Shown here in pieces: positions 14,470-21,896 of a stretch of DNA of 64,000 nucleotides. The number at the start of each line of letters is the position of its first letter. The stretch's first letter is position 1. The notes under the pieces are model-generated. The model saw only the letters and a program-made list of their open reading frames with translations, searched no databases and was not told the origin of the DNA. A program made the translations under genes and the position numbers. The DNA is from Escherichia coli (GTDB lineage Bacteria > Pseudomonadota > Gammaproteobacteria > Enterobacterales > Enterobacteriaceae): NCBI RefSeq assembly GCF_003334405.1, contig NZ_QOWM01000010.1. One strand, 5' to 3'.

Positions 14470-14760
<291 letters not shown>

Positions 14761-14778: not shown

Positions 14779-15120
14779 TTACGCGACCTTTTTTGCACGC
14801 TCTTCACGGCGTGCCAAATATTCAGCCACTGTTTCAATCCGTCCCAATTCTTCCTGGGTGCGCATGTTGTTTTCAACTTCCCAAAGATCAACCGCCGCCT
14901 GGAGGTTTAGCCAAAAATCGACTGTGGTATCAAAAACTTTCGCCAGACGAAATGCCATCTCAGTAGTGAGTTTACGATTGTTATTGATCAGTGCACTGAC
15001 GCTATTACGATGAACATGCAGCAACTCTGCTAACTCATTGATTTTCAAATCGAGCGGTTCCAGATATTCATAGAGAAGAATAGCTCCGGGTGTCGTCGGT
15101 TTTCTTGTTGCCTGTTTCAT
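14779..15120 (-). CDS. ybaQ: XRE-family helix-turn-helix protein, HigA-like antitoxin homolog, 113 aa
   Basis: ORF track 14779..15174; trimmed to the ATG at 15120 (MKQATRKPTTPGAILLYEYLEP...). HTH segment INELAELLHVHRNSVSALINN. No toxin-like ORF adjacent. Confidence 0.85.
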   Translation of the reverse strand: MKQATRKPTTPGAILLYEYLEPLDLKINELAELLHVHRNSVSALINNNRKLTTEMAFRLAKVFDTTVDFWLNLQAAVDLWEVENNMRTQEELGRIETVAEYLARREERAKKVA

Positions 15121-15257
15121 GGTTTTTAACTGTTGCTTCCTTGTGAATAGCGATGCAAGAACATACTGAATCATACAAACACATTAAACAAGTCTCCAAC
15201 TCCATTTGCGCCATCCCTCACCGCGCGCTAGCATGATATTTCACAAAGGGAGGTCGT

Positions 15258-16052
15258 ATGGATCTGTTGTACCGGGTAAAAACGCTTTGGGCCGCGCTGC
15301 GCGGTAATCATTACACCTGGCCTGCCATCGATATCACCCTCCCCGGCAATCGCCATTTTCATCTGATTGGCAGTATTCATATGGGTAGCCACGATATGGC
15401 TCCCCTGCCCACCCGTTTGCTCAAAAAGCTCAAAAACGCCGATGCGCTGATCGTCGAGGCGGATGTTTCCACCAGCGATACGCCTTTTGCTAATTTGCCT
15501 GCCTGCGAGGCGCTGGAAGAGCGCATTAGCGAGGAGCAACTCCAAAACCTGCAGCACATTAGCCAGGAGATGGGCATTTCTCCCTCACTCTTTTCTACCC
15601 AACCGCTGTGGCAAATCGCGATGGTTCTTCAGGCGACGCAGGCACAAAAACTGGGGCTGCGGGCAGAATACGGTATCGATTACCAGCTATTGCAGGCGGC
15701 GAAGCAACAACATAAACCCGTGATTGAACTGGAAGGGGCTGAAAACCAGATTGCCATGTTGCTCCAGCTCCCTGACAAAGGACTGGCGCTGCTGGACGAT
15801 ACGCTGACCCACTGGCATACCAACGCACGGTTGCTGCAACAAATGATGAGCTGGTGGCTGAATGCACCGCCGCAAAATAATGATATAACGCTGCCCAATA
15901 CGTTCAGTCAGTCGCTGTACGATGTGCTGATGCATCAGCGAAATCTCGCCTGGCGGGATAAATTACGCGCCATGCCGCCGGGGCGATATGTGGTCGCGGT
16001 CGGTGCACTACACCTGTATGGAGAAGGGAATTTGCCGCAAATGTTGCGCTAA
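15258..16052 (+). CDS. ybaP: TraB/GumN-family protein, 264 aa
   Basis: ORF track 264 aa; family assignment from memory of the K-12 annotation, not from an identifiable motif in the sequence. Confidence 0.88.
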   Translation: MDLLYRVKTLWAALRGNHYTWPAIDITLPGNRHFHLIGSIHMGSHDMAPLPTRLLKKLKNADALIVEADVSTSDTPFANLPACEALEERISEEQLQNLQHISQEMGISPSLFSTQPLWQIAMVLQATQAQKLGLRAEYGIDYQLLQAAKQQHKPVIELEGAENQIAMLLQLPDKGLALLDDTLTHWHTNARLLQQMMSWWLNAPPQNNDITLPNTFSQSLYDVLMHQRNLAWRDKLRAMPPGRYVVAVGALHLYGEGNLPQMLR

Positions 16053-16134
16053 AAAAATGGCCAATATCGCTATTGGCCCGTCAAAGAGGAATTTCATTTT
16101 TTTATTATTATGCCGTCACTTTAAGCGACGGTGT
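16051..16134 (-). ncRNA. chiX: Hfq-dependent small RNA ChiX (also called MicM/SroB)
   Basis: Reverse complement of 16051..16134 reads ACACCGTCGCTTAAAGTGACGGCATAATAATAAAAAAATGAAATTCCTCTTTGACGGGCCAATAGCGATATTGGCCATTTTTTT, matching my memory of ChiX, with an intrinsic terminator hairpin (GGCCAATAGCGATATTGGCC) and U-tract. Confidence 0.85.
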
Positions 16135-16240
16135 AACTCGATTGTCGCTCAATCTCACCATCCTGCCAATACTCTTAGGCAAGATGACTCTTTTTTTTGG
16201 ACCGCCATCAGGCGTATGCTTGCTTCGTTTTTTTGTTTAA

Positions 16241-16735
<495 letters not shown>

Positions 16736-16740
16736 GCATT

Positions 16741-16764
16741 GTGCCGGATGCAAACATCCGGCAC
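16741..16764. terminator. GC-rich hairpin between convergent ybaK and ushA (probable bidirectional terminator)
   Basis: gtgccggatg-caaa-catccggcac perfect inverted repeat directly after the ybaK stop and before the ushA stop. Confidence 0.65.
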
Positions 16765-16771
16765 TTTCGGA

Positions 16772-18424
16772 TTACTGCCAGCTCACCTCACCTTTCGGTT
16801 CATAAACACTCACATCCAGCGGCGAGCTTTTCTGGATATACGCTTTCAGCACTTCGGCATCAATAAAGCCGGTATTCACATAGCCCGGTTTGTTATCAAG
16901 GCGCGGATATCCATCACCGCCGGTGGCATTGAAGTTTAATGTCGCCATACGGTAAGTTTTCGCCGGATCGACCGGTTCGCCTTTGATTTTAAGGTCGTTC
17001 AGTTTGCCGTCTTTCGCCACAAAGCTAACGTTGGCAAATTGCGGGTAGGCACCTGAATCTGGCTTCATCTGCGCGACGGCGGTCAGGTAATCAATCACCT
17101 CTTTACCGGTCATGTCGGCATACACCACCACATTGCCGAATGGCTGCACTTTCAGCACGTTTTTATAGCTGATATCGCCTGCTTCGATAGAATCACGAAT
17201 TCCGCCTCCGCTCATCACCGCAAAGTCGGCACCAGTGCGATCCATTTGGGCTGCCAGAATCAACCGCCCCATATTGGTCTGTACAAAACGCACTTTGTCA
17301 CGATCGCCTTCCAGACGACCATTGGTTTCGCCTATTTTCACTTCCAGCTGCGCTTTGCCTTTGTTCTGGAACGGTGATAACAGCGAGATCATTTGCTGGT
17401 TTTCAGCGATTTCAGGAGTGTAAAGCACGCGCTCGCTTTTCCCGTCTTCCCAGGTCACTTTCTTCTTCAGGTTCACCGGAATCAGCTGGTAGTTAACCAT
17501 TTTCATTTCGCCATTACGAAACTCAAAATCAGCCCGTCCCACGTATTTGCCCCACTCATGCGCCTGCACAATCCAGATGCCGTTTTGTTGATCTGGTTTG
17601 CATGGCGTACCCGGCACGTAATCGACCTGTTTTTTGTTTTCTGCCGCCATGCAGACCGGATCTTGCGAGTGACCACCGACGATCATCGCCAGCGATCCGG
17701 CAGGCAGCGCGCGTGCCATCTCCACATCGCCCGGTGCGTTAGAGCCGTGCTCACCATTATCGTAATGCCCCATATGGGTCGCCGCGATAATAATGTCTGG
17801 CTTTTCTGTCTGTTGCAGCTCCTGAATCACCAGCTTCGCTTCATCGGCGGGCTTACGAAATTCGATATCAGTGAAGTATTCCGGGTTACCAATTTTTGCT
17901 GTGTCATCGGTTGTCAGCCCAATAACGGCAATTTTCAGATCCTGACGCTTAAACAGCGCCCACGGTTTAAACAGGCGCTCGCCAGTACTTTTCTGGTAGA
18001 TATTCGCGGAAAGCAACGGGAACTTGGCCCACTTTTCCTGCTGGCGTAATACGGTGAGCGGATTATCAAATTCATGATTACCGATCGCCATCGCGTCATA
18101 GCCCACCAGATTCATACCGCGAAAATCAGGTTCGGCATCCTGTAAGTCAGACTCGGGCACGCCAGTGTTAATGTCGCCACCGGAAAGTAGCAGCACGCTA
18201 CCGCCTTCAGCCGCAACCTCTTTGCGGATACCATCCACCAGCGTTTTTTGCGCCGCCAGACCATATTCGCCACATTCATTGCGCCAAAAATGCCCATGAT
18301 GATCATTGGTATGCAGAACTGTAATTTTGTAGGTTTTATCCTGCTCATACGCCAGAGCAGTTTCACTCGCCAGTGTAAATGTGGTTAACAGCGCTAACGC
18401 CACGCCCCGCTGCAATAATTTCAT
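16772..18424 (-). CDS. ushA: Periplasmic UDP-sugar hydrolase / 5'-nucleotidase, 550 aa
   Basis: ORF track 550 aa; signal peptide and calcineurin-like metallophosphoesterase motifs (DHHGH, GNHEFD). Confidence 0.95.
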   Translation of the reverse strand: MKLLQRGVALALLTTFTLASETALAYEQDKTYKITVLHTNDHHGHFWRNECGEYGLAAQKTLVDGIRKEVAAEGGSVLLLSGGDINTGVPESDLQDAEPDFRGMNLVGYDAMAIGNHEFDNPLTVLRQQEKWAKFPLLSANIYQKSTGERLFKPWALFKRQDLKIAVIGLTTDDTAKIGNPEYFTDIEFRKPADEAKLVIQELQQTEKPDIIIAATHMGHYDNGEHGSNAPGDVEMARALPAGSLAMIVGGHSQDPVCMAAENKKQVDYVPGTPCKPDQQNGIWIVQAHEWGKYVGRADFEFRNGEMKMVNYQLIPVNLKKKVTWEDGKSERVLYTPEIAENQQMISLLSPFQNKGKAQLEVKIGETNGRLEGDRDKVRFVQTNMGRLILAAQMDRTGADFAVMSGGGIRDSIEAGDISYKNVLKVQPFGNVVVYADMTGKEVIDYLTAVAQMKPDSGAYPQFANVSFVAKDGKLNDLKIKGEPVDPAKTYRMATLNFNATGGDGYPRLDNKPGYVNTGFIDAEVLKAYIQKSSPLDVSVYEPKGEVSWQ

Positions 18425-21807: not shown

Positions 21808-21896
21808 TATGTAGGCATGATAAGACGCGCCAGCGTCGCATCAGGCATCGAGAGCCAAATGCCAGATGCGGCGTGAATGCCTTATCTGGCCTACGA
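21808..21896. repeat. BIME/REP element (two inverted REP palindromes) between ybaL and gsk
   Basis: gtaggcatgataagacgcgccagcgtcgcatcaggcat ... gccagatgcggcgtgaatgccttatctggcctac read directly. Confidence 0.85.

Follow-up and report, generated by a model that had tools for sequence, protein, structure and literature searches.

A two-nucleotide overlap between the terminator of the small RNA gene chiX and the stop codon of the convergent gene ybaP in Escherichia coli

The window analysed here is a stretch of 64,000 nucleotides of Escherichia coli DNA (contig NZ_QOWM01000010.1 of assembly GCF_003334405.1). The small RNA gene chiX lies in it between ybaK and ybaP, and the window ORFs and the K-12 annotation place it opposite in direction to both (Table 1). 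ChiX is a repressor of chiP, and the chbBC decoy titrates it (summarised in PMC6582626). In an Rfam cmscan the gene matched the sroB/ChiX model RF00368 at full length (positions 1-83 of 83); the score was 82.1 bits, where the gathering score is 44, and E was 3.4e-11. Over the 1.6 kb from 15200 to 16800 the window agrees with E. coli K-12 MG1655 at every position (100% identity), and 5423 of 5426 complete E. coli genomes carry this region. In the K-12 record NC_000913.3, chiX is annotated at 507204..507287 (+) and ybaP at 507286..508080 (-), which gives the same 2-nt overlap. The Rfam match, the ORF list, the identity to K-12 and the K-12 annotation confirmed the identities, coordinates and convergent orientation that the initial annotation had given for the two genes.

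Table 1. Features of the ybaP-chiX-ybaK locus (window coordinates)
Feature	Position	Strand	Basis
ybaP CDS	15258-16052	+	264 aa, TraB/GumN family protein; ORF list and 100% identity to K-12 (annotated ybaP b0482)
ybaP stop codon TAA	16050-16052	+	Sequence read; the A's at 16051-16052 template the final two U's of ChiX
ChiX terminator read-through region	15800-16050	-	Antisense to the 3' half of ybaP; Adams 2021 supplementary file 2
chiX (sroB/micM/rybC), 84 nt	16134-16051	-	Rfam RF00368, K-12 b4585, Term-seq 3' end
ChiX terminator U7 tail (A7 on + strand)	16057-16051	-	Sequence read and terminator scan
ChiX terminator hairpin GGCCAAUA-GCGA-UAUUGGCC	16078-16059	-	8 bp, loop of 4; terminator scan and folds of both strands
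ChiX invariant single-stranded core/seed region AAAUUCCUCUUUGAC	16080-16094	-	Invariant columns, 14-sequence alignment
ChiX 5' stem-loop	16110-16134	-	Rfam structure line and RNA fold
chiX promoter-like site TTGGCA, 17 nt spacer, GACAAT	16141-16169	-	Consensus match only
ybaK	16256-16735	+	ORF list and annotation; next gene on ybaP strand

The RNA has the parts by which ChiX/SroB is recognized: the single-stranded seed CCUCUUUGAC is conserved, and a terminator hairpin with a U-tail comes after it. The sequence of its 5' stem differs among genera in the 14-sequence alignment, and the stem still forms. A consensus scan put the end of the putative -10 hexamer 7 nt upstream of the ChiX 5' end. Both the TTGGCA block and the GAGCGACAAT block of this putative promoter are conserved in Enterobacteriaceae loci.

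At the ybaP stop the + strand reads A7 (16051-16057), T (16058) and then the palindromic hairpin GGCCAATATCGCTATTGGCC (16059-16078). On the - strand, the terminator scan found the same hairpin followed by ATTTTTTTAG. In the ChiX direction this is an intrinsic terminator, with an 8-bp stem, AUUUUUUU and a Term-seq end on the last U. The published Term-seq data map the ChiX 3' end to K-12 507287, which is window 16051, in all three conditions (Adams et al. 2021, PMC7815308, supplementary file 1). Its scores are 445279 in LB at OD 0.4, 552306 in LB at OD 2.0 and 955394 in M63, and its class is 'primary chiX, antisense ybaP' (PMC7815308). These results showed that transcription of ChiX stops at 16051 on a canonical hairpin with a U7 tail, in agreement with the initial annotation, which had placed the 3' end near 16051. 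The overlap of the terminator with the ybaP stop codon, which that annotation also described, stands in a narrower form. It is 2 nt long and consists of the last two U's of the ChiX tail only, and the hairpin itself begins 7 nt past the stop codon. The gene, its terminator, the mapped 3' end and the 2-nt overlap are already known from the reference annotation and the published Term-seq tables; the overlap is not discussed in the main texts of the literature searched.

Close tail-to-tail arrangements are common in E. coli. In one Term-seq condition, 99 3' ends are classed as both 'primary' and 'antisense', that is, within 50 bp of a convergent gene. A neighbouring case is the ushA 3' end (window 16736), which abuts the ybaK stop codon (16733-16735). 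The geometry of the locus is therefore ordinary, and nothing shows that the overlap regulates chiX or ybaP.

The same junction was compared across Enterobacterales. Matches to the 15-nt ChiX core in genome contigs numbered at least 120; of the matches listed, most were due to chance and 14 were true ChiX loci, and Salmonella and Klebsiella were absent from these ChiX loci. The genera compared were Escherichia, Citrobacter, Enterobacter, Pluralibacter, Superficieibacter, Serratia, Rahnella and Pantoea. In 15/15 Enterobacterales loci from these eight genera, the ybaP stop codon and the terminator A-run are fused, so the overlap is not a chance trait of one strain. The fusion is kept while the YbaP C-terminal tails differ among loci (MLR*, MLK*, LLKG*, MLKKG*, MLKARQT*, MLQPQG*, MLKKP*), and the gene order ybaP-chiX-ybaK is kept in all 14 other loci. 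The terminator helix is 100% paired in the 14 sequences, with one compensatory change from an A-U to a G-C pair, and the U-run is 6-8 long in 13 of them and 5 in Pantoea. The stop-codon/terminator fusion is thus conserved across Enterobacteriaceae, Yersiniaceae and Erwiniaceae, which the present comparison adds to what was known. Strict zero spacing in three families could reflect selection for function rather than descent and constraint.

Termination in the opposite direction was then considered. The palindrome also folds in the ybaP-sense transcript, as seen in folds of both strands. Directly after the hairpin, the + strand continues with CGTCAAAGAGGAATTTCA, opposite the ChiX seed region. 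The tail in the ybaP direction is CGTCAAAGAGG, with one T in its first 11 nt and no U-tract, and, being complementary to the ChiX seed, it is invariant in 14/14 aligned sequences. The terminator scan found no + strand terminator-like site at the hairpin; together with the folds, it found none from 16053 up to a weak one at 16209-16222. Since the ybaP strand lacks a U-tract, canonical intrinsic termination of ybaP at the hairpin is not expected, and a canonical bidirectional intrinsic terminator is ruled out by the sequence. This adds a further point to the known picture, namely that the ChiX seed adjoining the hairpin excludes a canonical ybaP terminator in every species examined. The argument that ybaP transcription enters the antisense of the ChiX terminator holds as a matter of logic, as ybaP transcripts must pass 16052 and the hairpin has no U-tract in their direction. 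Read-through across chiX would run into ybaK.

A mapped ybaP 3' end or a joint ybaP-ybaK transcript was sought in published tables. The Term-seq tables hold no ybaP-strand 3' end near the locus in three conditions (PMC7815308), the tables of Adams et al. 2021 call no Rho-dependent region on the ybaP strand at the locus, and the SMRT-Cappable-seq supplements searched mention neither gene. These observations bear on the possibility that the hairpin is a true collision-type bidirectional terminator of the SEnd-seq class, with sharp overlapping ChiX and ybaP 3' ends flanking the stem-loop. Wang et al. (bioRxiv 10.1101/2022.10.23.513370) have published a model in which collisions drive termination at hairpins that lie between convergent genes. 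It needs a stem-loop and polymerases that often arrive from opposite sides, and it is most effective where genes are highly expressed. The locus offers a convergent pair, and one stable palindromic hairpin marks the boundary between the two genes. However, only one partner is highly expressed, the tables contain the ChiX end and not a ybaP 3' end, and the symmetry of A-tract and U-tract seen in classical bidirectional intrinsic terminators is absent. We consider this reading rather unlikely.

The only published evidence of read-through is on the ChiX strand into ybaP, and this read-through is limited by Rho. A bicyclomycin-sensitive Rho-dependent region peaks at K-12 507468 (window ~15870), ~180 nt inside ybaP (Adams 2021). 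The coverage there is 1492 and then 22 without bicyclomycin, and 2100 and then 115 with it (Adams 2021). The Rho score is 3.7 (p = 4e-10; Adams 2021, supplementary file 2), calculated over a window of 800 nt that takes in ChiX itself. The RNA just past the ChiX terminator is C-rich and G-poor, with a C/G ratio of 1.5-1.7 in the first ~100 nt. The two strands also differ strongly in expression. Term-seq scores are 4.5-9.6 x 10^5 for the 3' end of ChiX and ~10^3-10^4 for the neighbouring + strand ends (PMC7815308), so interference, if there is any, would act mainly from ChiX on ybaP.

These data are relevant to a second possibility, in which the dense, constitutive transcription of chiX, read-through past its terminator and the ChiX RNA act in cis on ybaP, by collision, by antisense RNA over its 3' half and by pairing at its 3' end, and in which transcription of chiX also shields ybaK from ybaP read-through, with the fusion maintained by selection. 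The Rho-limited transcript inside ybaP and the extreme asymmetry of expression fit such control, as do the zero spacing and gene order conserved in three families and the tail-to-tail overlap of arcZ with arcB in the K-12 annotation. On the other side, little of the ChiX-strand transcription reads through (22 of 1492 reads in the absence of bicyclomycin) and its Rho score covers ChiX as well, descent with a double constraint can explain the conservation, and many unrelated gene pairs are arranged in the same way. We regard selected control of ybaP by ChiX as unlikely.

RNA from the ybaP strand over chiX has been recorded in one Hfq RIL-seq data set (McQuail et al.), in which fragments cover K-12 507215-507289. 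These rows, labelled ybaP.EST3UTR, were reinterpreted as ChiX in the literature, although they lie on the strand opposite ChiX. In one library they account for ~9.8 thousand chimeras against ~5.3 million for ChiX, roughly 0.2%. The apparent 5' ends of the fragments coincide with the ChiX 3' end, and the same data set contains chimeras between ChiX and an antisense ribosomal RNA spacer. On these two grounds the reads were rejected as proof of an anti-ChiX RNA. We infer that both patterns could arise when reverse transcriptase switches template to the cDNA of highly abundant RNAs, and the ybaP-strand reads fit a library artefact no worse than they fit a real anti-ChiX RNA. The strand of these rows is a third addition to what was known, and the 'ChiX-SdsR', 'ChiX-ArcZ' and 'ChiX-Spot 42' sRNA-sRNA interactions in those tables should be read with caution.

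Pairing sites of the partner RNAs were also inspected. At the stop codon, the ybaP-sense strand is matched perfectly over 10 nt by SdsR UUUUAGCGCA and over 12 nt, with three G-U pairs, by the ArcZ seed (complementarity search, sites within 16041-16054). When SdsR and ArcZ were folded with ChiX or with the antisense of ChiX, the duplexes were long, full of loops and no better than those of shuffled sequences (z scores of -0.3 to -2.4). The two sites were not accepted as support for a real ybaP 3'-end RNA: they lie mostly outside the fragment limits (5' limit K-12 507288/9), the odds ratios are low (1.5-2.6), Spot 42 is a partner as well, and the site is not conserved outside Escherichia.

If the ybaP-strand fragments were real, Hfq would carry an anti-ChiX RNA, and the case for an ordinary locus would be weaker. 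A real anti-ChiX transcript would give one of the most abundant sRNAs on Hfq a further layer of control in cis, but the evidence for such a transcript is weak. In the fullest form of this idea, the fragments are real and were mislabelled ChiX, ybaP read-through is an Hfq-bound perfect antisense, and the fusion was selected as a cis-regulatory unit in which ChiX controls ybaP and ybaK or the ybaP 3' UTR buffers ChiX. It appears improbable to us.

The initial annotation had also seen scope for transcriptional interference or for pairing of ybaP 3' UTR transcripts with ChiX. Taken as a consequence for ChiX itself, this would mean either a lower output through interference from ybaP transcription or a ybaP 3' UTR acting as a cis-encoded sponge that titrates or destroys ChiX. 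Several observations are compatible with it. The ybaP transcripts must cross the terminator region and would meet no + strand terminator-like site before the weak one at 16209-16222. The read-through RNA would be perfectly complementary to ChiX, and ybaP-strand fragments are present in Hfq RIL-seq data. Cis-encoded sRNA antagonists also exist, such as RyeA/SdsR in K-12 and CJnc180/190 in Campylobacter (PMC8687705). However, the ChiX end is among the strongest Term-seq 3' ends while no ybaP-strand end was detected, and chimeras at roughly 0.2% of those of ChiX make stoichiometric titration implausible. A consensus scan, which is a weak test, found no + strand promoter-like site for a dedicated antisense RNA in 15000-17000, and no paper linking ybaP to ChiX regulation was found in the literature searched. 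An influence of ybaP transcription on ChiX is therefore very improbable, and the proposed regulatory consequence is unsupported: ChiX is far more abundant, and Term-seq gives ybaP no 3' end here.

Taken together, the locus is probably best explained as a known, strongly expressed ChiX gene packed tail-to-tail against ybaP, where the overlap is ordinary compaction and the effect of ybaP on ChiX is negligible. The A-run that templates the U-tail of the Rho-independent ChiX terminator starts inside the ybaP TAA, probably as a result of genome compaction under two constraints. ChiX presumably needs an unbroken U-tail, for termination and for Hfq binding, and ybaP presumably needs a stop codon ahead of the hairpin. 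In the alternative ybaP frames, as read by eye only, the first stop is reached after another 19 or 21 codons, within the antisense of chiX. Because the complement of the ChiX seed takes the place of a U-tract, the hairpin would not act as a canonical intrinsic terminator for ybaP, and ybaP polymerases would enter the chiX transcription unit. There they would most likely be halted by head-on encounters with the denser ChiX traffic and with promoter complexes; alternatively, the ybaP RNA may be trimmed back to the hairpin. A small share of ChiX transcription would continue as ybaP antisense until curtailed by Rho ~180 nt downstream. As ChiX greatly exceeds ybaP mRNA in abundance, the effect of ybaP on ChiX would be negligible, and any cis effect would be expected to run from ChiX to ybaP.

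Compared with known systems, the gene is the same as ChiX/SroB/MicM/RybC of E. coli and Salmonella (RF00368, b4585), and its sequence, position, 3' end, terminator and seed are identical to those of K-12. The closest arrangement is arcZ/arcB of E. coli, where the terminator end of an Hfq-dependent sRNA overlaps the convergent gene by 9 nt in K-12, compared with 2 nt for chiX/ybaP. ArcZ reportedly lowers arcB mRNA, a finding ascribed to Mandin and Gottesman in 2010. Such an effect on the convergent mRNA is thus reported for arcB, whereas chiX/ybaP is likened to it by gene arrangement alone. Bidirectional terminators between convergent genes are said to have been described with SEnd-seq by Ju et al. 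in 2019. The locus resembles these terminators, and those of Wang et al., as a convergent pair with one boundary hairpin where opposing polymerases are expected to meet. In contrast to them, with their overlapping 3' ends of both transcripts, chiX/ybaP is known from the ChiX end alone, its expression is extremely unequal, and in the ChiX direction the hairpin is a plain intrinsic terminator. RyeA/SdsR of E. coli and CJnc180/CJnc190 of Campylobacter (PMC8687705) involve an opposite-strand transcript fully complementary to the sRNA, as ybaP read-through would be. RyeA and CJnc180 are transcribed from promoters of their own and have been detected as RNAs, whereas an anti-ChiX RNA would only be putative ybaP read-through. 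A locus in which the fusion served as a cis-regulatory unit would resemble ArcZ/arcB or RyeA/SdsR.

The small RNA gene chiX and the convergent gene ybaP overlap by two nucleotides at their 3' ends, where the last two U's of the ChiX tail face the two A's of the ybaP stop codon. In Rfam cmscan, chiX matched the full RF00368 model (1-83) with 82.1 bits, versus a gathering score of 44. The predicted ChiX fold consists of a 5' stem-loop, a single-stranded middle and the terminator (z = -3.6 versus shuffles). The minus-strand terminator consists of an 8-bp hairpin with a GCGA loop and, after it, AUUUUUUU; it was also called as a terminator-like site by the scan. The 1.6-kb region around the junction (15200-16800) matches E. 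coli K-12 MG1655 with 100% identity and occurs as a single copy in 5423 of the 5426 complete E. coli genomes (at least 95% identity). The K-12 record NC_000913.3 has the gene order ushA, ybaK, chiX, ybaP, ybaQ, copA, with chiX (b4585) at 507204..507287 (+) and ybaP (b0482) at 507286..508080 (-), so the 2-nt overlap is already present in the reference annotation. Relative to this record the window is reverse-complemented, and K-12 coordinates were converted as window = 16051 + (507287 - K-12 coordinate). The PGAP-annotated RefSeq E. coli records carry ybaP and ybaK and lack a chiX feature (16051-16134), which is found only in the curated NC_000913.3.

Features at the chiX/ybaP junction and neighbouring repeats (window coordinates)
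Feature	Position	Strand	Basis
ybaP ORF, 264 codons	15258-16052	+	ORF list; sequence inspected over 15700-16500
ybaP stop codon TAA	16050-16052	+	sequence
A7 run, followed by T at 16058	16051-16057	+	sequence
20-nt palindrome GGCCAATATCGCTATTGGCC	16059-16078	seen on +	sequence
chiX (sroB family RF00368 = ChiX/MicM/RybC)	16134-16051	-	Rfam cmscan
Weak terminator-like site, just before ybaK	16209-16222	+	terminator scan
REP-type repeat naRNA4 (RF02564), 64-89 bits for the three copies	14575-14652		Rfam
REP-type repeat naRNA4	14676-14753		Rfam
REP-type repeat naRNA4	21814-21891		Rfam

The 3' end of ChiX was located with the published Term-seq tables (Adams et al. 2021, PMC7815308, supplementary file 1). 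A 3' end at K-12 507287 (+), classed as "primary (chiX), antisense (ybaP)", is reported in all three conditions with scores of 445279, 552306 and 955394; in the rows around the locus, the other 3' ends of that strand have scores of about 10^3-10^4. In window coordinates the ChiX end falls on the central base of the ybaP stop codon, at 16051. The initial annotation had described the two genes, their convergence and their overlap, with a ChiX 3' end reaching 16051. The observation was confirmed in every detail, the mapped end lying exactly at 16051 in the three conditions, and the overlap is already known from the reference annotation and the published 3'-end maps.

The same study reports a bicyclomycin-sensitive (Rho-dependent) region that it classes as antisense to ybaP; the region is on the ChiX strand and peaks at K-12 507468 (+), window ~15870 (-) (Rho score 3.7, p = 4e-10; supplementary file 2). 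The region lies inside ybaP, about 180 nt beyond the ChiX 3' end, and the RNA directly past this end is C-rich and G-poor (C/G ratio 1.5-1.7). This antisense region points to slight leakage at the ChiX terminator: a small part of ChiX-strand transcription continues into ybaP, where it is curtailed by Rho. This direction is opposite to the one stressed initially. We found no other published transcript-level evidence of cross-talk at the junction.

The initial annotation also proposed that ybaP transcription enters the ChiX terminator and might thereby cause transcriptional interference or yield RNA pairing with ChiX. After the hairpin, the plus strand reads CGTCAAAGAGGAATTTCA, which has a single T in its first eleven bases. 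These bases are complementary to the ChiX seed and do not vary among the 14 aligned sequences. A U-tract serving ybaP could arise there only by destroying ChiX function. Between the ybaP stop codon and the weak site before ybaK, the scan found no terminator-like site on the plus strand, and folding predicted mirror-image hairpins for the ybaP-sense RNA. Judged from the sequence, canonical termination of ybaP at the shared hairpin is not expected. In the ybaP-sense RNA, the A7 run was also predicted to pair with a T7 run (16097-16103), the complement of an A-rich stretch internal to ChiX, giving a longer weak A-U helix that encloses the hairpin.

For all three conditions, the Term-seq rows around the locus lack a ybaP-strand 3' end close to chiX, and in the M63 sheet none is listed anywhere between 497939 and 553873 (PMC7815308). 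Polymerases leaving ybaP may meet the far more frequent ChiX polymerases, or the chiX promoter complex, head-on; a collision model for hairpins between convergent genes describes such an outcome (Wang et al., bioRxiv 10.1101/2022.10.23.513370). Alternatively, the ybaP RNA might be trimmed back to the hairpin by exonuclease, or transcription might carry on into ybaK. Rho could also act on the plus-strand RNA over ~16093-16230, because its C/G ratio is 1.6-1.9; no Rho-dependent region on the ybaP strand is called near the locus in the part of the PMC7815308 tables consulted. Thus, the point that ybaP transcription must enter the ChiX terminator region was upheld; the proposed effect on ChiX was unsupported. 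A functional cis effect of ybaP on ChiX is very improbable, and one of ChiX on ybaP is unlikely. The abundance asymmetry and the Rho-limited read-through on the ChiX strand point to ChiX as the dominant partner in any interaction.

Two of the three naRNA4 repeats lie between ybaQ and copA. The Term-seq rows consulted list 'orphan' 3' ends 8-11 nt past each of these two copies, at window 14665 and 14567 (-), equivalent to K-12 508673 and 508771 (PMC7815308). Their position suggests that they are REP-stabilised ends of the ybaQ transcript.

Hfq RIL-seq tables contain abundant chimeric reads on the ybaP strand. Their authors relabelled these, writing that "ybaP.EST3UTR was considered to be ChiX" (McQuail et al. 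2023, PMC10954441). In the rows examined, the ybaP.EST3UTR fragments are on the '-' strand at 507215-507289 and 507238-507288. They therefore correspond to window 16049-16123 (+), the ybaP strand, antisense to ChiX. The strand column was correct for ompA, ompT, ompF, rbsD and proQ in the orientations that we take these genes to have. In every row examined ybaP.EST3UTR is the first RNA of the chimera, with SdsR (up to 3391 chimeras), ArcZ (540 chimeras, odds ratio 2.6) and Spot 42 (304 chimeras, odds ratio 1.5) as partners; chiX on '+' is always the second RNA, with known partners such as the chbBC spacer (PMC10954441).

The ybaP.EST3UTR reads could be genuine ybaP 3'-UTR (anti-ChiX) RNA on Hfq. 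More likely, they are an artefact that a very abundant RNA produced in the library. The apparent 5' limit of the fragments (507288/9) coincides with the ChiX 3' end, and they do not extend into the ybaP coding sequence. Moreover, the partners are just sRNAs of high abundance and have low odds ratios, and the same data set also contains ChiX chimeras with antisense ribosomal RNA spacer sequence (PMC10954441). Such a pattern would be expected if reverse transcriptase had switched templates onto cDNA made from highly abundant RNAs. In the one library considered, the ybaP-strand signal was about 0.2% of the ChiX signal. Under either reading, the reported ChiX-SdsR, ChiX-ArcZ and ChiX-Spot 42 'sRNA:sRNA' interactions rest on wrong-strand reads.

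Complementarity to two of these partners was found at the ybaP stop codon. The ybaP-sense AUGUUGCGCUAAAA (16041-16054, +) is a perfect 10-nt complement of SdsR UUUUAGCGCA, and it also pairs over 12 nt, with three G-U pairs, with the ArcZ seed UUGGCGCAGUAU; the search found no match of 7 nt or more between ChiX and SdsR. This complementarity is probably due to chance, because the sites largely fall beyond the limits of the RIL-seq fragments and, among the loci compared, were not conserved beyond Escherichia.

To define the conservation of the junction, a genome collection was scanned with a 15-nt ChiX core, which gave mostly chance matches and at least 14 true ChiX loci. These came from Enterobacteriaceae (Escherichia coli, E. 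albertii, two Citrobacter, several Enterobacter, Pluralibacter, Superficieibacter and one further isolate), Yersiniaceae (Serratia and Rahnella) and Erwiniaceae (Pantoea). In tblastn with the window proteins, ybaP (58-97% identity) ended adjoining chiX in 14/14 loci, and ybaK lay about 200 nt further on the ybaP strand in all of them. The in-frame ybaP stop codon (TAA; TGA in Pantoea) was fused directly to the A-run templating the ChiX U-tail in 15/15 loci, the window included (the frame in Enterobacter sp. Ag1 was assigned by eye), so the overlap is ancestral to at least three Enterobacterales families. The YbaP C-terminal tails vary in sequence and length (MLR, IMR, MLK, LLT, LLKG, MLKKG, MLKARQT, MLQPQG and MLKKP before the stop). 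In the alignment of 14 ChiX sequences, the seed AAAUUCCUCUUUGAC was invariant and the terminator stem nearly so; all eight terminator pairs were 100% paired, with one compensatory change from A-U to G-C in Rahnella and Pantoea, and the U-run was 6-8 long (5 in Pantoea). Reading the sequence by eye, the first stop in the other two ybaP frames comes 19 or 21 codons further, inside the chiX antisense; clearly, only the frame with TAA at the T preceding the A-run avoids translation into it. In these 15 related sequences, the zero spacing may itself be under selection, or it may persist simply through constraint on both neighbours.

In the literature searched, ChiX action on chiP and its removal by the chb decoy are described in reviews (PMC6582626); no ybaP-ChiX link was found in main texts beyond the naming of flanking genes and the RIL-seq relabelling. 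Taken together, the locus is probably an ordinary, conserved and compact tail-to-tail junction.

Similar junctions are found elsewhere. In one condition, 99 of the Term-seq ends listed by Adams et al. fall into the primary and the antisense class at once; pairs of this kind in the rows consulted include ompA/matP, rmf/fabA, rybB/rcdA, cspE/crcB and crl/phoE (PMC7815308). The next convergent pair in the window, ybaK (+) and ushA (-), which meets at 16733-16774, has the same geometry as chiX/ybaP: its 36-nt spacer holds one shared hairpin, GCCGGATG-CAAA-CATCCGGC (16743-16762), and the ushA 3' end (K-12 506602, window 16736) directly follows the ybaK stop codon at 16733-16735 (PMC7815308). In K-12, the convergent genes arcZ and arcB share 9 nt at their 3' ends (NC_000913.3 3350577-3350697 and 3350689 onward); as with chiX, the sRNA terminator lies within the coding sequence of the facing gene. 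This tail-to-tail arrangement is common, and chiX/ybaP is an example of it.
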